Below are positions 936 through 11,956 of a stretch of DNA of 64,000 bases, in pieces; position 1 is the first letter of the stretch; every line of letters starts with the position of its first letter. The position numbers were made by a program, and so were the translations under genes. Under the pieces are notes generated by a model, which saw nothing but the letters and a program-made list of their open reading frames with translations, searched no databases and was not told the origin of the DNA. Origin of the DNA: an uncultured bacterium (lineage in GTDB: Bacteria; JAGOEH01); contig CAZWDO010000002.1 in NCBI GenBank assembly GCA_964632485.1, positions 124,001 to 188,000 of the forward strand, given 5' to 3'.

Positions 936-2222
936 ATGGGCAGTGGCGCGTTCAACCCATTTCAAATGGCTCAGACTCAATTTGATCGTATCGCGGAAGT
1001 GTTGCAATTGGATGAAGGAACCCGCGCATTATTACGCGACCCCATGCGTGAATACCATTTTAGTATTCCAGTCCGTATGGATGACGGCAAAGTGAAAATT
1101 TTCAGGGGGTATCGCATCCAGCATAATGATTCGCGCGGCCCTTGTAAGGGTGGTATTCGTTTTCATCCTTTGGAAACGGTTGATACGGTACGCGCATTGT
1201 CATTATGGATGACCTGGAAATGCGCGGTAGTAGATATCCCCCTGGGTGGAGGAAAAGGAGGCGTGATTTGCGATCCCCATCATTTAACTGCTCGTGAACA
1301 AGAGCTCATCTGCCGCGGGTATGTTCGGCAATTAGCCCAGGTAGTTGGGCCGCTTCGCGATGTTCCAGCGCCTGATGTCATGACGAATGCCCAGCACATG
1401 CTATGGATGCTGGATGAATATGAGACTATCCGCGGCGTAAAATACCCCGGTTTTATTACTGGTAAACCAGTGGGTATGGGTGGGTCGCTCGGACGTACTG
1501 AGGCGACAGGTTTCGGGGTTGTTTATACATTGCGCGAGGCGTTAAGAATGCTGAATATGTCGCCTGAAAAATGTGTCGCTGCGGTCCAGGGTTTTGGCAA
1601 TGTCGCTCAATATGCTATAAAACTTTTTACCCAAATGGGCGGTCGCGTGATTTGTGTTTCCTGCTGGGACCAGACCGATCGAACTGCTTATACTTATCGG
1701 AAAAAAAGTGGGGTTGATCTGGCTGAATTACTATCGATTACTGATCGATTCGGTGGCATTGAGAAGGATAAAGCCCGTGAATTGAACTATGAGCTGCTCC
1801 CTGCGGAGGACTGGCTGGAACAGGATGTGGATATTTTGATTCCGGCGGCGTTGGAAAATCAGATCACTGCTGAAAATGTCAATAAAATCAGCCAACGTGT
1901 GCGGATTATTGCCGAAGGCGCGAATGGTCCGACCACTCCGGATGCGGATCAGATCATCCAACAACGGAATATTTTTATGATTCCCGATTTTTTAGCGAAT
2001 GCGGGAGGAGTGACTTGCAGTTATTTTGAGCAGGTACAATGCAATATGAACTATTTTTGGGAAAAAGATGAAGTTTTAGCCAAACTCGATACAAAAATGA
2101 CCGGCGCATTCCATGGTGTGAGCGAATTAGCGCGAAAACGGAAACTCTTTATGCGTGATGCCGCTTATGTGATTGCTGTCAATCGGGTAGCCCAGGCTTG
2201 CCGAGAACGCGGATGGGTGTGA
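936..2222 (+). CDS. gdhA: Glu/Leu/Phe/Val dehydrogenase family, glutamate dehydrogenase
   Basis: KGGIRFHP, MTWKCA, GGGKGG, PAPDV, GRTEATGFG, QGFGNVA, EGANGPTT and PDFLANAGGV. SD aaggag upstream. Confidence 0.93.
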   Translation: MGSGAFNPFQMAQTQFDRIAEVLQLDEGTRALLRDPMREYHFSIPVRMDDGKVKIFRGYRIQHNDSRGPCKGGIRFHPLETVDTVRALSLWMTWKCAVVDIPLGGGKGGVICDPHHLTAREQELICRGYVRQLAQVVGPLRDVPAPDVMTNAQHMLWMLDEYETIRGVKYPGFITGKPVGMGGSLGRTEATGFGVVYTLREALRMLNMSPEKCVAAVQGFGNVAQYAIKLFTQMGGRVICVSCWDQTDRTAYTYRKKSGVDLAELLSITDRFGGIEKDKARELNYELLPAEDWLEQDVDILIPAALENQITAENVNKISQRVRIIAEGANGPTTPDADQIIQQRNIFMIPDFLANAGGVTCSYFEQVQCNMNYFWEKDEVLAKLDTKMTGAFHGVSELARKRKLFMRDAAYVIAVNRVAQACRERGWV

Positions 2223-3901
2223 TTCGATTTATTGGTTCCGGTGATTCCGGCGGTAAAGCTCAGGGACTCATCGACAGCCTGGCGTTGATCGAACAGTTTT
2301 CAGCTTCCTTGCCGTTTAGTGGGATCATGTTAAATATTCCGCAAATGATCATTATCCGTAGTGATTTATTTACCCGTTTTGTCTCTCATAACGGCCTTAT
2401 TGAACGAATCGAACCGGATTCGTCGGATATCGATATCGCCCGATATTTTTTGCAGGGCGATATCCCTGCTGAGTGGATAGGAGACCTCCGCCGTGTGAGT
2501 GATTCATTGAAAGTCCCCCTGGCAATCCGTTCTTCGGCGTTGTTGGAAGACGCGCGGCAATTGCCTTTTGCGGGTGTGTATCTAACTAAAATGATTCCCA
2601 ACCATCAATTGGATCCCTCTATTCGCTTTCACCAGTTTTTAGAAGCGATCAAACTTGTGTGGAGTTCAACCTATTATGGGAATGTCCGGGCGTGTCGCCA
2701 ATCATTAGGCTTAGCGCCTTTTGGGGAACAAATGGCCGTACTGATTCAGCCGATTGTCGGCGCTCGTTGGAATCATTACTTTTTCCCTCTGGTTTCCGGA
2801 GTGGCGCGTTCCCATAATTATTATCCATTCCCTGGAACCTGCGCCGAGGATGGGGTTGCGCAATTGGCTTTGGGTTTGGGGAAAACGATTGTTGATAATC
2901 ATCCCAGTTGGATATACTCCCCGGCTAATCCGGGTCTGTCGATGCCTTTTCCTTCTTTCAAAGCCATGCTTCAGGCCACTCAAACCCGTTTTTGGGCCAT
3001 CGATTTAAGCCGCCAATTTCAGTATGATCCATTTTCTGAAACTGAATATATGAGCTATTTATCGTTGAAGCAGGCAGAGATTCCAGCGGTTTTACGCTAT
3101 GTCGCATCCACCTGGCATCCGGAAAACGATCGACTCGAGATGGGCGCTTTTGATAAAGGGCCGCGGGTATTGAATTTTGCTCCATTGCTTCAATCCTCTT
3201 TGCTTCCCTTCAATCCCTTGATCCGTTTGTTACTGGCAGAATTGACTGCTGTTTATCCCCAAGGAGTGGAAATTGAATTTGCCCTGCAAATTGATGATTT
3301 ACCACAAACCGTTCCCATTTTTAATGTTTTGCAGATTCGGGGATTAAACTCGATTCAAACTCAGCTTATGCTACCCCTTGATACTATCCCCCGGGAGAAA
3401 ATAGTGGTTCAGTCGCGTCAGACGTTGGGTGAAGGCATGAAACGATCGATTCGGGATATCGTTTATCTGTTGCCGGACTGTTTTAATCTTGTCCATACTC
3501 TTCAAATCGCTTCAGAATTGGAGAGTGTGAACCGATTTCTTATGGAAAACCACCGAACATGCCTTTTAATCGTTTTTGGTCGTTTGGGAAGCTCTGATCC
3601 CTGGTTGGGTGTGCCGGTAACCTGGCCGCAAATTTCCAGCGCGGAAGTGATTGTGGAGGGTGGTCTTGATCAGTTTCAACCTGATCTCAGCCAGGGATCC
3701 CATTTTTTTCATAATCTTTCTAATCTGGGAGTGTTCTATTTATCTCTTAATAAAACGGAAACCGATGCGATCAATTGGAATTGGTTAAGGGAATTAACCT
3801 GCATCCGTGAAACTGATTTTCTTCGACATGTTGAGTATATGCCAGGACTTAATGCCGCCATATCGTCCCATAACCAGCAAGGAGTAGTTTTCTATGATTG
3901 A
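2219..3901 (+). CDS. PEP/pyruvate-binding (PPDK_N, ATP-grasp) domain protein of unknown function
   Basis: GGKAQGL, AIRSSALLED..FAGVY, GLGKTIV, EIEFA and C-terminal GRLGSSDPWLGVPV..SQGSHFFHNL. Start is probably GTG 2219 (GTGA overlap with the gdhA stop) or ATG 2213, rather than TTG 2198. Confidence 0.8.
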   Translation: MIRFIGSGDSGGKAQGLIDSLALIEQFSASLPFSGIMLNIPQMIIIRSDLFTRFVSHNGLIERIEPDSSDIDIARYFLQGDIPAEWIGDLRRVSDSLKVPLAIRSSALLEDARQLPFAGVYLTKMIPNHQLDPSIRFHQFLEAIKLVWSSTYYGNVRACRQSLGLAPFGEQMAVLIQPIVGARWNHYFFPLVSGVARSHNYYPFPGTCAEDGVAQLALGLGKTIVDNHPSWIYSPANPGLSMPFPSFKAMLQATQTRFWAIDLSRQFQYDPFSETEYMSYLSLKQAEIPAVLRYVASTWHPENDRLEMGAFDKGPRVLNFAPLLQSSLLPFNPLIRLLLAELTAVYPQGVEIEFALQIDDLPQTVPIFNVLQIRGLNSIQTQLMLPLDTIPREKIVVQSRQTLGEGMKRSIRDIVYLLPDCFNLVHTLQIASELESVNRFLMENHRTCLLIVFGRLGSSDPWLGVPVTWPQISSAEVIVEGGLDQFQPDLSQGSHFFHNLSNLGVFYLSLNKTETDAINWNWLRELTCIRETDFLRHVEYMPGLNAAISSHNQQGVVFYD

Positions 3902-6900
3902 GCAAAATCCAACGTTTGATAAAATCTATCACACCTTGAATGAACGGGCCAAGGAACTCAATTGTCTCTACCATGTAGAAGAAATTCTGGCAAAATTGGA
4001 AACTGATGATCTGAATATTCTTCAGGAAATCATTGAAGCGATCCCACCGGGTTGGCAGTATCCCGATATTTGTATGGTGCGTCTGGAGATCGATGGGAAA
4101 ATTGTCGCAAGCCGCTGTTTCTGGGAGAGTCCATGGGTGTTGAAAGTAGCTATTCAGACGGATGAAGCTACCATCGGTACTCTGGAGGTTTTTTACGGAG
4201 AAGCTCGACCCCCTGCGGACGAGGGGCCATTTCTGCGGGAAGAACGTCGTTTGATTAATACCATTGCTGAACGTATTGGCCAATCTTTTTTCCATTTAAA
4301 ATTAAAGCTGCTCTTTCAGCAATGGGAAAAAGCAAAAACCGAATTGTCGGAAAACCACATTACAGAATGGCAGGTAATCCTTAATCTGCTGCTGAAAACC
4401 GATGCCAATCTCTATATGATTGTTTCCCGAAAAATGATGAACCACCTTTTTTGGAGCGGGATTGAGGAAGCTAAAAACTATATCCATATATTCAATGCTC
4501 ATATACAATCGGCCAACCAGGTTCTGCTGGGTGATGAAAATCGTCCGCAAACGCGCCAATCACTGAAAAAATTGATTGAATTAAATCAAAACATTTTTAC
4601 CATCGCTTCCCGTTATCTTGCCAATCAGGAAATTTTGAATTTGATACAAAAATGGATCGGCGAGGATAAATCTTCGTTTTTAATCCGGATACTGGAAAAT
4701 CCAGATAGTCCTCTTTCTGAAATAACTGATGCGATTGCCCGGTTTCATCATTTGGCGCTAAATGAAGTTGAGCTTTCGCCGGCCGCTCTCAAAGGTATCC
4801 ATGTTTCGCTGATTCGGCGTTTTTTTACGGATCAGTTGGAGTATCTCAATATTGCCAAATCATTTGTAAGTATCCAGGATTTTTATGATTTACAAAAACG
4901 GATCATCCATCCGCCGGACAGTCATGGTAAACTGGGGGGTAAAAGCGCCGGTTTATTTTTAGCATTGCAAATTCTTAAAAGCTGTGATGATTCAACCGCT
5001 GCTTTTTTACAAAACCTCTCTGCGCCGAAAACCTGGTATATCACATCCGATGGACTGCATCATTTTGTTTACTATAATAATCTGGAAGATGTCCTGGAAC
5101 AAAAATATAAGGAACTGGATCAAATTCGCCAGGAATACCCGCATATCATTCAATTATTTAAAAATTCGCAATTCCCGCCGGATTTGGTAAAAGGATTGGC
5201 CTTAGCGCTTGATGATTTTGGCGCTAAACCATTAATTGTAAGAAGTTCAAGTTTATTGGAAGACCGATTGGGGGCGGCTTTTTCGGGTAAATACAAGAGT
5301 TTATTTTTAGCGAATCAGGGAACAAGGGAACAGCGGTTAGAAGCTTTAGCAGACGCGATCGCCGAGGTTTATGCTTCCACGTTTGGACCCGATCCGATTT
5401 TGTATCGTCAACAACGCGGGTTACTTGATTTCTATGAAGAAATGGGGGTCATGATCCAGGAAGTCGTAGGGAATACCTTTGGTCCCTATTATTTACCGGC
5501 TTATGCCGGTGTAGCATTCAGCCAGAACGAGTTTCGTTGGTCTTCACGTATTGAACGCAAGGATGGATTGATTCGTCTGGTGCCGGGATTGGGCACGCGC
5601 GCTGTGGATCGTTTAAGTGATGATTATCCGATTTTGCTGGCGCCGGGGAAACCCGATTTGCGTGTCAATATATCCATGGAAGACCAATTGCGTTACACGC
5701 CTAAAAAAATTGATGTGATTAATCTATCGACCAACCAGTTTGAAACGGTTTCCGTACGTGAGTTTCTGCAAAAAATTGGCGATGCCTCCCCGTGCCCCGA
5801 GCTGCTGTTTTCAATATATGATGAAGAACATATTCGTCCCTATTCCCCGTGGGGAAATGATATTGATCCGAAAAAAATGGTGCTGAATTTTTCAGGGTTA
5901 TTGGAAAAAACTCCCTTTGTCCGCCAGATCAAGGCAATTTTAGAGCGTTTGCAGAATACCTTGGAATTTCCCGTCGATATCGAGTTTGTCTCGGACGGCC
6001 GGAAACTCTATCTCCTCCAATGCCGACCCCAATATGCAAGCGGAGATTACGGATCGGCTCCCATACCCCAGGATATTCCTCAAGATGATATTTTGTTTAC
6101 TGCCCACCGTCATATTTCAAATGGCCGGGTCCCGCTAATTTCACATTTAGTGTATATCCCCCCTCAGGCCTATCAGGAATTGACGGCTTTAGAGGATCTG
6201 ATGGAAGTGGGAACGGTCGTTGGTCGATTGAATGCGCTATTGCCTAAACGTCAGTTCATCTTGATCGGACCGGGTCGGTGGGGGAGTCGGGGTGATATTC
6301 GTCTGGGCGTGAATGTAACGTATGCCGATATTTGCAATACTGCCGTTTTGATTGAAGTTGCCCGAAAAAAAGGAAACTATGTTCCCGATCTATCCTTCGG
6401 CACCCATTTTTTCCAGGATTTGGCGGAAGCAGAAATCCGATATATTCCTCTATATCCCGATGAAGCTGATGTTGTTTTTAATGAATCGTTTATGCTGGAT
6501 AGTCCCAATATGCTCAGCGCGCTATTGCCTGAATACAGGCATCTCGAAGAAGTCATTCATGTTATCGATATCGCCCAGGTAAAAGAGAGCAAAGGTTTGC
6601 AGATTCTGCTCAATGCCGATCTCGAACAAGCGGTGGCCTATTTCACCGGTAAAGAGGTATCCTTACCCCGGAGCGTAATTGCGACTACCGTTCAGCCATC
6701 AGTTTCCGATGCTTCATGGCGCTGGCGATCCAGTATGGCGCAACGTGTTATCGATGAATTAGATTTTCAGCGATTTGGTATTTTAGCAGTATTCTTGATG
6801 GGGAGCGTAAAAAATGCTACTGCTGGTCCGGCCAGTGACATTGATTTGCTTGTTCATCTATCTGCATCAGAAAGCCAAAAAGAGGCCCTGTTAAATTGGT

Positions 6901-7094
6901 TCGAGGGGTGGAGTCTGTGTCTCAGTGAAATAAATTATTTGAAAACAGGTTATAAAACGAGTGGATTACTAGATGTTCATCTGATCACTGATCTGGATAT
7001 CGAACAGGGAGATAGTTTTGCTGCCAAGATTGGCGCTGTTACCGATGCTGCGCGTCTGATCAAAGCTGTTGTAGGTTATAGTGATAAACGCTGA
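3894..7094 (+). CDS. GAF-like sensor + PPDK_N (ATP-grasp) + C-terminal Pol-beta-type nucleotidyltransferase domain protein
   Basis: N-terminal LNERAKELNCLY..IPPGWQYP..EGPFLREE; GGKSAGL, VRSSSLLED..FSGKY, GLGTRAV, DIEF, GPGRWGS and SFGTHFFQDL; C-terminal GSVKNATAGPASDIDLLV and later DVHL. Confidence 0.82.
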   Translation: MIEQNPTFDKIYHTLNERAKELNCLYHVEEILAKLETDDLNILQEIIEAIPPGWQYPDICMVRLEIDGKIVASRCFWESPWVLKVAIQTDEATIGTLEVFYGEARPPADEGPFLREERRLINTIAERIGQSFFHLKLKLLFQQWEKAKTELSENHITEWQVILNLLLKTDANLYMIVSRKMMNHLFWSGIEEAKNYIHIFNAHIQSANQVLLGDENRPQTRQSLKKLIELNQNIFTIASRYLANQEILNLIQKWIGEDKSSFLIRILENPDSPLSEITDAIARFHHLALNEVELSPAALKGIHVSLIRRFFTDQLEYLNIAKSFVSIQDFYDLQKRIIHPPDSHGKLGGKSAGLFLALQILKSCDDSTAAFLQNLSAPKTWYITSDGLHHFVYYNNLEDVLEQKYKELDQIRQEYPHIIQLFKNSQFPPDLVKGLALALDDFGAKPLIVRSSSLLEDRLGAAFSGKYKSLFLANQGTREQRLEALADAIAEVYASTFGPDPILYRQQRGLLDFYEEMGVMIQEVVGNTFGPYYLPAYAGVAFSQNEFRWSSRIERKDGLIRLVPGLGTRAVDRLSDDYPILLAPGKPDLRVNISMEDQLRYTPKKIDVINLSTNQFETVSVREFLQKIGDASPCPELLFSIYDEEHIRPYSPWGNDIDPKKMVLNFSGLLEKTPFVRQIKAILERLQNTLEFPVDIEFVSDGRKLYLLQCRPQYASGDYGSAPIPQDIPQDDILFTAHRHISNGRVPLISHLVYIPPQAYQELTALEDLMEVGTVVGRLNALLPKRQFILIGPGRWGSRGDIRLGVNVTYADICNTAVLIEVARKKGNYVPDLSFGTHFFQDLAEAEIRYIPLYPDEADVVFNESFMLDSPNMLSALLPEYRHLEEVIHVIDIAQVKESKGLQILLNADLEQAVAYFTGKEVSLPRSVIATTVQPSVSDASWRWRSSMAQRVIDELDFQRFGILAVFLMGSVKNATAGPASDIDLLVHLSASESQKEALLNWFEGWSLCLSEINYLKTGYKTSGLLDVHLITDLDIEQGDSFAAKIGAVTDAARLIKAVVGYSDKR

Positions 7095-7125: not shown

Positions 7126-7160
7126 AAAAAAAAAACCGTAAGCTTTAGGCTTACGGTTTT
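7126..7160. terminator. Bidirectional intrinsic terminator between the gdh operon and tRNA-Asp
   Basis: AAAACCGTAAGC-tttag-GCTTACGGTTTT inverted repeat with A and T tracts. Confidence 0.8.
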
Positions 7161-8826: not shown

Positions 8827-8879
8827 TGTCTCCTTTTAATTCAGGTGAAAGTTGATTTTTTGGCGCCTTTTAGTAAATA

Positions 8880-8907
8880 TAAACTGATTTCATACCCGAT
8901 GGGTTCC
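8880..8907 (-). promoter_or_regulatory. Candidate ECF (sigmaE-type) promoter for degP
   Basis: GGAAC-N18-GTTTA on the minus strand about 55-80 nt upstream of degP. Confidence 0.4.
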
Positions 8908-8930
8908 CAAATTTCATATATAAAATTTTC

Positions 8931-8959
8931 TTGACACTAGCGCTAAATTGTTTTATATT
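8931..8959 (+). promoter_or_regulatory. sigma70-type promoter upstream of the AsmA-like gene
   Basis: TTGACA-17-TATATT. Confidence 0.65.
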
Positions 8960-9172
8960 ATCATCAAACTAATATCGTATGAGTCGCTTGGCAGAATTTG
9001 TAGGATTTCAAATGAATAAACGCAACGTAGATACCGTCGAGCGCGAAATGGTCACAATAGGATATGATTCCAACTCTGCTTCCGCTGGATGAGGGATTTT
9101 AATAATCAGGCATGAATATTAAGGATTTGCGATGGTATATCGCAGTAACATTTAACGTCACAGGAGTTTAAT

Positions 9173-11956
9173 ATGGCGCGACAAAGCATTGCACGTCGGC
9201 TGGTGTTTGGATTCGGAATTTTTTTTGGTGTTGTTTTTATTGTTTTAATCTCCATTCCATTGCTTTTTCAAGGAAAAATTAAAACGTTGATCCAACGGGA
9301 AGTTAACAGCAAAATTCAGGCTGATTTTTCATTCGGCAGCGTTTCTTTAAGCCTCATTCGTGATTTCCCGAATATTTCTCTTTCTATCGAAGAGATATGT
9401 CTGACCAATCGCGAACCTTTTGCCGGCGATACGTTGTTGGATGTCGAACAAATCGGGATTGTCTTCGATTTGTCCAGTTTATGGAATGATGATGGCTGGC
9501 GTCTGCGACAAATTACAATTCGTTCTCCACATTTAAATTTGAAGAAAAGCGTGAAGGGAGCTGCTAACTGGGAGATCATGCCGGAAGCAAACGGAACGGA
9601 TAGGGTTGACACAGCTTCAACTCAGACTGAGACAGCCTTTCATCTGAAATTGAATGAGTTCGTTATCTCTCAGGCCTGCCTATCATATCAAGACGATTCC
9701 ACGGGGTTATATGCTCTCGTTGCCGGTTTGAATCATGAATTGAAGGGTGATTTCACTCAGGAATTATTTCTGTTGCAAACTAAAACTGAAATTGATTCTT
9801 TATCGGTACGAAATGGCAATATGCCCGTTCTGGAAAATGTGAGACTTCAGTTGCTGGTCGATCTTGACGCCAATATGGCAGATACCAGCTTTACGGTTCG
9901 CCAGGGCAATTTAAAATTGAATGAATTTGGAGTGAATTTAATCGGATTTGTTGGGCTTAAAGGGGAAGATGTTATAACAGATTTGAAACTTGAATTGCCT
10001 GGCAACGATTTTAAAAATTTACTTTCCCTGGTTCCTTACGCTCTAAGCCAGCAGTTTGCCGATGTCAAGACCTATGGCCGGATAGAATTGGAAGCCTATG
10101 CCAAGGGTGTTTTTAATTCCGAGCAGTTAGGAGAGTTTGGAATCGGATTGAAGATCGATACCGCCGGGTTTCGTTATCCGGCATTGCCAAAATCTGTGGA
10201 TGATATCACGGTAGATTTTAAGATTTCGCATGATCAGGGAGGACCTGACCTGACTCGCGTTGATCTGCAGCAGTTTCATCTGAATATCGGGGGTAATCCT
10301 TTTGATTGCGAATTTCATTTACAGCATCCCGTTTCCGATCCGCAATTGGATTTAACCATGCGGGGAGAAATCGATATATTGACGTTGCGCGATATCCTGC
10401 CGATACCGCCGGAACAGGAATTGCAAGGCCGAATCCAAACCGATTTGGAAGTGAAAGGGCAGCTTTCGATGTTCCAGCAGCAGCAATACGATCAGGTAGT
10501 TGCCCGTGGGAGTTTTTCTTTAATTGATTTTAAGTATCTCAGCCCCGATTTTCCGGCCCCCGTGATGATCCATCAATTCACACTGAATTTCTCTCCTCAA
10601 AAAGTAACGCTGCAAAAATTTTATGTTCATCTGGGCCGTACCGATCTTAATGCGTCCGGAATGATTGATAATATTTTACCCTTTGTCTTAAAAGGCGAAA
10701 CACTCAAGGGCGCGTTTACATTTCACTCGCAATTGGTGGATTTAAATGAGTATATGGATTTGTTGATGGAGAGCGACACGACACCTCTAACTGTCATTCC
10801 TGTTCCTGGTAATCTGGATTTTGAACTTGAAAGCCAGGTTGATAAAATCCTCTTCGATCGCCTTGAATTAACTGATTTAGCAGGTAAGATCATCATTCGC
10901 GAAGGTCGGGCCGATTTGAGCCGATTGCGCATGCGGACGTTGGGCGGCGAATTGGAAATTGCCGATAGTTATTATGATCCAACGGATATTACGGCCCCTA
11001 AAATCGCTTTTAACTTGAATTTGAAGGATATGGAGATTCCCTTGGTATCTGATGCAATTGTCATGGTGCAAAAATTTGTTCCAATTGCCAAACATTGCGA
11101 CGGTAAATTTTCTGCAGATATTAAATTTAATTCCTTGCTCGATCAAACCCTTATGCCTCTCCTGTCCAGTGTGAACGGTGAGGGGAGTTGCCTGACTCGC
11201 CAGGTACGGATTTTAGGATATGAGCCTTTTACCAAACTCTCCGACCAGATGAAGATGGATCAGTTCAGCCAAATGGAATTAAAAGATGTCAATTTTTTAT
11301 TTTCTATTGCCGATGGGAAGTTGCTGATCCAGCAATTTCCGTTGAAAATGGGAGCGATCGCCGGAACGTTTGAAGGCACAACTACAGTCGATCAAGCGAT
11401 AGATTACGTGATGAAACTGGAAATTCCATCTTCATTGTTATCAACCGATGCGCGTCAATCCATGAACCATTTATTGGGCGATGCAGGCAAATGGGCAAGC
11501 GGCGCCACAATGCCCGAAAAATTAGCAATTTCCGCCTTGATTGTGGGTTCTGTGCTTAAACCAGAATTAAAAATTTCGGCTTCGGACTTAGGAAGCGCTG
11601 TTAAAGAGCAGGTTAAACAGCAACTCAATGAAAAAAAAGAAGAAGCGATTCAACAAGTTAAACGTGATTTGACGGCAGAAAAGGCTAAAATTATGGCGGA
11701 AGCGGAAACAAAAGCCCAGGCCCTCCGCGAGGAGGCCCGGAAACTGTCCGATCAGGTCCGCGATGAAGGATATGCTCAAGCAGATGCTTTAGCCAAAAAA
11801 GGCGGCAATCCCCTGGAAAAAGCTGCTGCTAAAAAAGCAGCGGAAAAACTACGCAAGGAAACTGATAATAAAACGAATAAAATTGTTTCCGAAGCCGATC
11901 AAAAGTCGGAAGCGCTTCTCAATGAAGCTCGTCAGAAAGCGGATCGGCTTCAGTAA
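9173..11956 (+). CDS. AsmA family (bridge-like lipid transfer) membrane protein with C-terminal coiled coil
   Basis: N-terminal TM anchor, SLSLIRDFP, long beta-rich body and Ala/Lys/Glu-rich helical tail. SD aggag. Confidence 0.8.
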   Translation: MARQSIARRLVFGFGIFFGVVFIVLISIPLLFQGKIKTLIQREVNSKIQADFSFGSVSLSLIRDFPNISLSIEEICLTNREPFAGDTLLDVEQIGIVFDLSSLWNDDGWRLRQITIRSPHLNLKKSVKGAANWEIMPEANGTDRVDTASTQTETAFHLKLNEFVISQACLSYQDDSTGLYALVAGLNHELKGDFTQELFLLQTKTEIDSLSVRNGNMPVLENVRLQLLVDLDANMADTSFTVRQGNLKLNEFGVNLIGFVGLKGEDVITDLKLELPGNDFKNLLSLVPYALSQQFADVKTYGRIELEAYAKGVFNSEQLGEFGIGLKIDTAGFRYPALPKSVDDITVDFKISHDQGGPDLTRVDLQQFHLNIGGNPFDCEFHLQHPVSDPQLDLTMRGEIDILTLRDILPIPPEQELQGRIQTDLEVKGQLSMFQQQQYDQVVARGSFSLIDFKYLSPDFPAPVMIHQFTLNFSPQKVTLQKFYVHLGRTDLNASGMIDNILPFVLKGETLKGAFTFHSQLVDLNEYMDLLMESDTTPLTVIPVPGNLDFELESQVDKILFDRLELTDLAGKIIIREGRADLSRLRMRTLGGELEIADSYYDPTDITAPKIAFNLNLKDMEIPLVSDAIVMVQKFVPIAKHCDGKFSADIKFNSLLDQTLMPLLSSVNGEGSCLTRQVRILGYEPFTKLSDQMKMDQFSQMELKDVNFLFSIADGKLLIQQFPLKMGAIAGTFEGTTTVDQAIDYVMKLEIPSSLLSTDARQSMNHLLGDAGKWASGATMPEKLAISALIVGSVLKPELKISASDLGSAVKEQVKQQLNEKKEEAIQQVKRDLTAEKAKIMAEAETKAQALREEARKLSDQVRDEGYAQADALAKKGGNPLEKAAAKKAAEKLRKETDNKTNKIVSEADQKSEALLNEARQKADRLQ

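Follow-up and report, generated by a model that had tools for sequence, protein, structure and literature searches.

What is a nucleotidyltransferase (NTase) domain of the Pol-beta type doing at the end of a dikinase-like protein encoded next to a glutamate dehydrogenase (GDH) gene? This question is raised by a 64,000-nt stretch of contig CAZWDO010000002.1 (assembly GCA_964632485.1) from an uncultured bacterium, hereafter the window, in which all positions are 1-based. The sequence-only reading of this DNA had proposed that the domain is a GlnE-analogous module for GDH or for a neighboring paralog. We directly established the modules of the protein, its conserved residues, the operon that includes its gene, the fusion of the paralog to it, the linkage of its ATP-grasp core to GDH, and the linkage of the NTase to a phosphoesterase. 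The explanation that we tentatively prefer, while giving it somewhat less than an even chance, is that the NTase is a sensor-controlled writer and the phosphoesterase an eraser on a GDH-linked dikinase-like regulator, the target being a protein in the GDH/dikinase-like assembly.

The three genes of the operon lie on the + strand, and each overlaps the next. The first, gdh (936..2222), encodes a 428-aa GDH of the hexameric type (Pfam ELFV_dehydrog_N, E 2.6e-54; ELFV_dehydrog, E 7.5e-72), which scored 478 bits against the NCBIfam model GdhA_Arch, under its equivalog cut-off of 750. It is followed by the gene of a 567-aa paralog (2198..3901) and by the large gene (3894..7094), whose stop-free translation is a 1066-aa protein. 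The start of the paralog is likely the ATG at 2213 rather than 2198, still ahead of the gdh end at 2222, and the large gene overlaps the end of the paralog gene by 8 nt. The description of a dikinase-like protein next to gdhA was thus accurate, with both the GDH and the PPDK_N-containing paralog encoded upstream of it in the window.

The last ~130 residues of the large protein (residues ~935-1066, 6696..7091), recognized by Pfam, conservation and a structural model, are a minimal MNT-type Pol-beta NTase. Pfam NTP_transf_2 (PF01909) matched residues 960-1004 (E 1.6e-5) and, at 25.7 bits, exceeded its curated cut-off of 21; Polbeta (PF18765) reached 21.6 bits, under its cut-off of 26.9. The motif LMGSVKNATAGPASDIDLLV (encoded at 6795-6854) contains the hG[GS] and [DE]h[DE]h elements of this fold as G970-S971 (codons at 6801-6806) and D982-I-D984 (6837-6845); LLDVHL is encoded at 6966-6983 and includes D1027 (6972-6974), the candidate third carboxylate, which lies in a predicted strand (1026-1031) of the AlphaFold model. 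Conservation was followed in two sets of sequences. Among 109 homologs of 1040-1100 aa, our own included, G970, S971, D982, D984, D1027 and H1029 were kept in at least 98%. The second set came from a scan in which each species was represented by one genome and which returned at least 547 stretches with relatives of the large gene; the best 80 loci were analyzed, and their metagenome-assembled genomes are labeled as Ignavibacteria, Calditrichia, Zixibacteria, Acidobacteriota, Planctomycetota, Aminicenantes, Eisenbacteria, Krumholzibacteria and others. The last 347 residues of the window protein were aligned with those from 76 of these 80 genomes, the four remaining loci being left out because the gene was cut or incompletely covered. 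In the resulting 77 sequences from 77 genomes, G970, S981, D982 and D1027 never vary, and at least 90% of the sequences keep S971, D984 and H988. In a profile of this alignment, GS and SDID coincide with the corresponding motifs of 2rff and URT1, two NTases of solved structure. Since the catalytic residues are kept across the homologs, the NTase match is more than chance, and their conservation suggests that the domain is catalytically competent. The anticipated Pol-beta domain was therefore confirmed; its GS/DxD/D residues, far from being degenerate, are invariant or nearly so, and the DVHL segment holds an invariant Asp as candidate for the third acidic residue.

The fold agrees with this assignment. 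The AlphaFold model of residues 720-1066 had a mean predicted local distance difference test score (pLDDT) of 90.0 and a predicted template modeling score (pTM) of 0.65. Foldseek against the PDB gave no match at E <= 1e-3 for this model or for that of the N-terminal part; its top rows for residues 720-1066, at E 1e-3 to 1e-2, were 2rff, MNT antitoxins and aminoglycoside nucleotidyltransferases (ANT). We then used VIA-align for fold comparison, and its matches support an alpha-beta-alpha-beta-alpha-beta core for the NTase: the MNT antitoxin 8xeh_E (Z 8.4; root-mean-square deviation, rmsd, 3.2 over 101 residues), 2rff (Z 8.3) and ANT(4') (Z 7.7), followed at lower scores by HalB 9dbh (Z 6.0), DrrA (Z 5.9) and the N-domain of GlnE, 1v4a (Z 5.1).

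The likeness to MntA and the other MNT NTases, the antitoxins of type VII toxin-antitoxin systems (8xeh, 7ae9, 5yep, 2rff), extends to the same minimal fold and the same GS...DxD...D motifs. MntA adenylylates a protein, HepT, according to two published accounts (PMC7641770, PMC11586414). In contrast to MntA, the window NTase is fused to a 930-residue sensor/ATP-grasp part (elsewhere to a GAF domain), is paired with a metallophosphoesterase, and has no HEPN partner in the six neighboring window open reading frames (ORFs) scanned with Pfam, as had been noted from the sequence. It scored 17 bits against the NCBIfam MntA model (NF047752), whose cut-off is 60, and the ANT families were likewise below threshold. 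The GlnE and GlnD families gave no Pfam or NCBIfam match at E <= 0.1. By these family models, the domain is not a member of MntA, GlnE/GlnD or ANT.

Searching 1.84 billion proteins retrieved 356 representatives of the NTase subfamily at E <= 1e-3. The lengths of the best 150 of them fall mostly at ~1040-1077, ~1640-1654, ~280-295 and ~130-220 aa, with some intermediate values. When 15 proteins of odd length from these 150 were scanned, most turned out to be fragments of the large family; one is a LysR fusion and another carries Mur_ligase_C, both possibly gene-call artefacts. Judged from these matches, the subfamily is small and closed. These data make it very improbable that the domain is a non-catalytic relic retained for dimerization or scaffolding, or else an ordinary MNT antitoxin or aminoglycoside NTase fused by chance. 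The weak NCBIfam matches to the MntA and ANT families would fit such an origin, but they are far below the cut-offs, no HEPN gene was found in the ORFs scanned, the catalytic residues are maintained across phyla, and nearly all relatives belong to four length classes.

The remainder of the protein is built, from the N-terminus, of a GAF sensor, a helical region, a PPDK_N ATP-grasp domain and a domain with the GRWGS and GTHFF motifs. The N-terminal 345 residues were modeled with a pLDDT of 81.9. A GAF fold was recognized at residues ~10-146 of this model (sensor domain at residues ~1-140, 3894..4313), with 3cit as the best VIA-align match (Z 12.3, rmsd 2.3 over 123 residues), together with the GAF domains of NifA (8jrc, Z 10.8) and PtsP (3trc, Z 10.7); almost all of the 48 chains at Z >= 8 were GAF domains. 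Pfam did not detect GAF in the large protein at E <= 0.1. According to DSSP, the following region (residues ~141-345, 4314..4928) is all helical, and it gave a single weak fold match, 2p0n (Z 8.4 over residues 157-261). The ATP-grasp domain (residues 346-718, 4929..6047) matched Pfam PF01326 (PPDK_N) with E 5e-59, covering positions 3-314 of the 328 in the profile, and its PDB sequence match was 5hv6_A (E 6.8e-4). The expectation that one polypeptide would hold a sensor and a second chemistry in addition to the NTase was borne out by the GAF fold and by this ATP-grasp domain. We also observed that the GAF variant of this protein begins with an ERxKELxCLY helix, and that this module turns up again in sensor proteins of no other relation, whose frames span 278-1994 aa. 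One of them is encoded on contig 30 of the same genome (L084), many others appeared in a scan of 121 genomes described below, and in one, with a frame of 762 aa, the module comes after PAS domains and escapes Pfam.

The alpha/beta domain between the ATP-grasp and the NTase (residues 720-925, 6051..6668) spans ~200 residues and contains the best conserved stretches of the entire protein, GPGRWGS (792-798) and SFGTHFFQD (834-842), both invariant in the 77 sequences, as is the pair Thr837-His838 within the second. It is a candidate phosphoryl-carrier (swivel) domain. Fold comparison gave similarities to the phosphoryl carrier of PPDK (2fm4, Z 5.2, 116 residues aligned) and to the C-terminal domain of pyruvate kinase (2e28, Z 5.0), values that are in the noise range. 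Alignment with hhalign against 12 genuine PEP-utilizers domains (PF00391) gave a probability of 0.1%; PF00391 and PF02896 had no Pfam match in the large protein; a PDB profile search returned nothing for this domain even at E <= 10; and a search of the ESM Atlas with it returned only unnamed fragments from its own family. With this mixed evidence, the identification as a phospho-histidine swivel domain is a working hypothesis.

PEP synthase, PPDK and rifampin phosphotransferase (RPH) share the PPDK_N ATP-grasp with the large protein, and the domain that follows it has the invariant Thr-His pair and the weak likeness to the PPDK carrier. The domain plan of RPH, an ATP-grasp/His-swivel dikinase, is described in PMC4844700, and HpeHI is presented in PMC12167813 as a two-component dikinase; the large protein and its paralog also make a two-protein system. 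Unlike these enzymes, the large protein adds GAF and NTase modules and adjoins GDH, PF00391 and PF02896 were not detected in it, and its best NCBIfam model, PEPS, scored 49 bits with a cut-off of 598. Measured against the phosphoenolpyruvate (PEP)-utilizing dikinases, the core is thus PPDK_N-like but without PF02896 or any score near equivalog level. PtsP (EI-Ntr) offers another parallel, combining a GAF sensor with an enzyme of the phosphotransfer type in a nitrogen context. PtsP has no ATP-grasp or NTase; it uses PEP and phosphorylates NPr.

The 567-aa paralog consists of an ATP-grasp domain (PPDK_N, E 2.2e-24) and a conserved GRxGS/GSHFF domain, without GAF or NTase, and is 28% identical to residues 345-861 of the large protein. 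RSS..LED, GR.GS and SQGSHFFHN are conserved in 54 paralog sequences. The paralog lies between the GDH gene and the large gene in ~59 of the 80 loci. Among the 120 best homologs of the large protein, ten are single chains of 1629-1655 aa that join both; in one of these (P0004), residues 19-572 align with the paralog and the remainder with the large protein. Because the two genes occur fused as one protein, the paralog is a true partner of the large protein. One paralog gene, at G092:C81:4963-6471, has three in-frame stops, which may reflect decay.

We then looked at which part of the large protein accounts for its proximity to GDH. A GDH gene was found directly upstream, on the same strand, in 64 of the 80 loci, farther upstream in two and elsewhere in the locus in four; eight loci are cut upstream, and a GDH of the operon type is absent from the other two. 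Compared with the window GDH, the neighboring enzymes are 65-77% identical (median 73%, 62 loci). This very strong association is among the strongest gene-neighborhood signals obtainable. Only three species genomes are available in the phylum of the window, so the distribution of the individual modules was surveyed in another class, the one that holds locus L010, with 121 genomes. Seven matches there stop at about residue 915-928 and belong to frames of 920-965 aa; when these loci were fetched with their flanks, none of the seven carried an NTase, and in six of them the gene is directly behind a GDH (60-74% identity), with no separate paralog in between. Variants of this kind, of ~920-965 aa, are at L170-L175 (genomes G046, G067, G026, G061, G124 and G059), and three of these six genomes also hold a full-length copy. 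Since the variants without NTase still follow GDH, the GDH link is a property of the ATP-grasp core and not of the NTase. A second lineage has REC in place of GAF, lacks the NTase and is encoded near an E. coli-type GDH with 31-35% identity; it was observed on contig 13 of the same genome and at L042 and L030. On contig 13 (L083:199-3177, L083:3196-4506, L086/L194), the 992-aa REC-DUF5752-PPDK_N protein is followed by a multi-PAS protein and then by an E. coli-type GDH that is 34% identical to that of the window.

The GDH of the operon type has a loop of its own, CVSCWDQxDxxxYxFRK (residues 240-256, with W244-D-Q-x-D-x-x-x-Y252 at its center). W244 is invariant, and D245, Q246, D248 and Y252 are kept in at least 90% of sequences. 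GDH paralogs of 46% identity and E. coli-type GDHs have no such loop. It is a candidate docking or modification site and bears on the possibility of a GlnE-like role for the NTase, in which GDH, in place of glutamine synthetase, would be its direct target for adenylylation or uridylylation. Such a role would suit the GDH neighborhood of the large gene and the restriction of the W244...Y252 loop to this clade, and it would also suit the replacement of Tyr252 by Phe in the GDHs of L170 and L175, from genomes in which only the form without NTase was found. These two loci are close relatives, however, and count as one event; Tyr252 is present in 59 of 63 GDHs beside NTase-bearing genes and so is not invariant; and the forms lacking the NTase retain both the link to GDH and the loop in their GDHs. 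The proteins that carry the NTase with little else, described below, adjoin an operon-type GDH in none of 80 loci. We regard Tyr252 as a weak lead for a modification site, and direct nucleotidylation of GDH as quite improbable.

A different partner emerged when residues 925-1066 were searched against shorter proteins, which retrieved recurrent 288-aa GAF-NTase proteins, in which this NTase is joined straight to a GAF domain of the type seen in the large protein. One of them (P0133) aligns to residues 15-133 and 905-1057 of the large protein, and 16 sequences of this class share invariant GS, DID and DLH motifs. In 80 metagenome loci with a GAF-NTase, the operon-type GDH is never adjacent; an ELFV dehydrogenase of 31-38% identity is near in nine, and a paralog-like gene in three. 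Of the 47 loci that span 6 kb or more, 45 have an ORF of ~282 aa directly downstream of the GAF-NTase; it encodes a calcineurin-like metallophosphoesterase (PF00149, E 1e-9). These widespread cassettes are at loci L090-L168 (for example, L124:8001-8861 and 8864-9712), with GAF-NTase sequences ranging from 100% down to 38% identity. The cassette looks like a self-contained unit, either of sensor, writer and eraser or for making and breaking a messenger.

The same phosphoesterase accompanies the large gene: the proteins encoded beside it and beside the GAF-NTase are orthologous (45% identity, E 2e-91). It was detected downstream of the large gene in 27 of the 45 loci of at least 15 kb. A tblastn count over the 80 large-gene loci, 68 of them informative (at least 1.2 kb downstream) and 12 cut, located it within 2 kb downstream in 40 of the 68, mostly 15-100 nt away and convergent, and at 2.3 kb in one more. 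None of the seven loci whose large gene lacks the NTase carries a phosphoesterase. The presence of both genes was also tabulated, by our own reading of the match tables, for the 121 genomes: NTase and phosphoesterase were both present in 43 genomes, the NTase without phosphoesterase in 13, the phosphoesterase without NTase in one, and neither in 64 (Fisher p 6e-20, an overstated value because relatives are not independent). A stand-alone NTase of 144 aa abuts a phosphoesterase at L177, surrounded by a REC protein, a GAF histidine kinase and a REC-PPDK_N paralog. The steady companion of the NTase is, from these observations, an uncharacterized calcineurin-like metallophosphoesterase. Ninety-five sequences retain its motifs DxH, GD, GNDD, H and GHxH; sequence searches gave no solved or named close relative, and NCBIfam gave a weak match to the PRK09453 phosphodiesterase (E 1e-4). 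The genome of the window encodes an ortholog on contig 5 (46% identity, E 2.5e-69). At G082:C4:1666720-1667548, the phosphoesterase beside the large gene is split into two frames, a possible sign of decay.

How this pair could work admits two answers. In one of them, the NTase and the phosphoesterase make and break a small nucleotide molecule, such as a second messenger, a short oligonucleotide or a nucleotidylated metabolite to which the GAF domain binds; proteins would stay unmodified, and in the large protein a signal module would merely be fused to a GDH-linked regulator. The self-contained cassette, which usually has no GDH or dikinase-like neighbor, fits this view, as does the location of the L177 pair inside a two-component signaling cluster. 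The GNDD variant of the motif and the PRK09453 similarity suit a diesterase, the oligonucleotide-signal NTase HalB is among the fold matches, and the stand-alone NTase weakly resembles Pfam Adenyl_cycl_N (18.4 bits, below the cut-off of 27). Known NTases that form small molecules or oligonucleotides carry extra helical or substrate-binding lobes. The NTase studied here, on the other hand, has just ~130 residues and no additional lobes of either kind, its closest solved folds are the protein-modifying MNT antitoxins, and no candidate receptor was identified. We consider this answer a serious one, though on balance unlikely.

The answer that we prefer, a writer and an eraser acting within the GDH/dikinase-like assembly, treats the NTase as an accessory cassette on a multidomain signaling enzyme that works together with the 567-aa paralog. 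The ligand state of the GAF domain would control the NTase, which would transfer a nucleoside monophosphate (NMP), probably AMP as in the case of MntA, from the corresponding triphosphate to a hydroxyl group; the metallophosphoesterase would hydrolyze the resulting phosphodiester. The two proteins would thereby act as writer and eraser, following the logic by which GlnD combines an NTase with a hydrolase. The candidate targets are the dikinase-like proteins themselves or GDH, and the nucleotidyl mark would set the activity of the ATP-dependent core, which would in turn act on or with GDH. Several observations weigh against this proposal. The phosphoesterase was not found nearby in 27 of the 68 informative loci, the window among them, and 13 of the 56 NTase-bearing genomes have no copy of it at all; no fusion of the NTase with the phosphoesterase was seen among the best 150 of the 356 relatives; and the phosphoesterase could remove a phosphate instead. 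In addition, the GAF-NTase/phosphoesterase cassettes are mostly far from GDH or dikinase-like genes, an arrangement for which a diffusible product is no worse an explanation than a protein target.

What then became of the proposed GlnE-analogous module? The NTase is real, the link to GDH is strong and the paralog is a true partner; the assignment of GDH as the partner of the NTase did not hold up in the same way, with the GDH link persisting in six of the seven loci that lack the NTase, no GAF-NTase beside an operon-type GDH in 80 loci, and a phosphoesterase as the steady companion. In GlnD and GlnE, a Pol-beta NTase of nitrogen metabolism is combined with a sensor and a removing activity. The NTase described here shares the nitrogen-metabolism context and, at the level of the fold, a similarity to the GlnE N-domain, but the candidate remover is a separate calcineurin-like protein rather than an HD domain or a second NTase, and the sensor is GAF rather than ACT. 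By analogy, a GlnE/GlnD-like logic is plausible, and it is strengthened because a candidate removing enzyme was found. A more ambitious version would see in these genes an undescribed cascade for the covalent modification of GDH, spread across hundreds of species in many phyla and standing to GDH as GlnD/GlnE stand to glutamine synthetase. In it, GAF would read a nitrogen or carbon metabolite, the ATP-grasp/His-carrier pair would phosphorylate or drive GDH, and the NTase and phosphoesterase would write and erase an NMP mark that gates the process. We hold this version to be improbable as a whole.

Other features of the locus were also recorded. A hairpin of 12 bp with A/T-run flanks, detected by a pattern scan only, lies at 7132..7160, between the large gene and the convergent htrA, and resembles a terminator on either strand. 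The ORF at positions 3-857, directly upstream of gdh, encodes a response-regulator receiver together with an Hpt domain; it appears in one of the 80 loci, hence it is not conserved. The GC content is 0.48-0.49 across gdh and the start of the paralog gene, 0.42-0.46 in the large gene and 0.39-0.44 in the flanks. Within the phylum of the window, the large gene was found in this one genome alone among the three species genomes, which may therefore have gained the operon by transfer.

A literature search, which did not extend to subscription journals, found no paper on the operon or on the GAF-NTase/metallophosphoesterase pair. To our knowledge, post-translational control of GDH beyond the enteric and Bacillus models is largely unknown, and the three-gene unit, with GDHs that are 65-77% identical across many lineages, offers two chemistries and a candidate eraser. 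If the writer/eraser interpretation is true, the calcineurin-like proteins would be a new class of de-nucleotidylating enzymes and a portable GAF-NTase cassette would be defined. Should GDH be phosphorylated by the core, then the core would, as far as we know, be the first enzyme of the dikinase type to act on a protein that is not part of the phosphotransferase system. Overall, the evidence points to an add-and-remove modification system linked to nitrogen metabolism.

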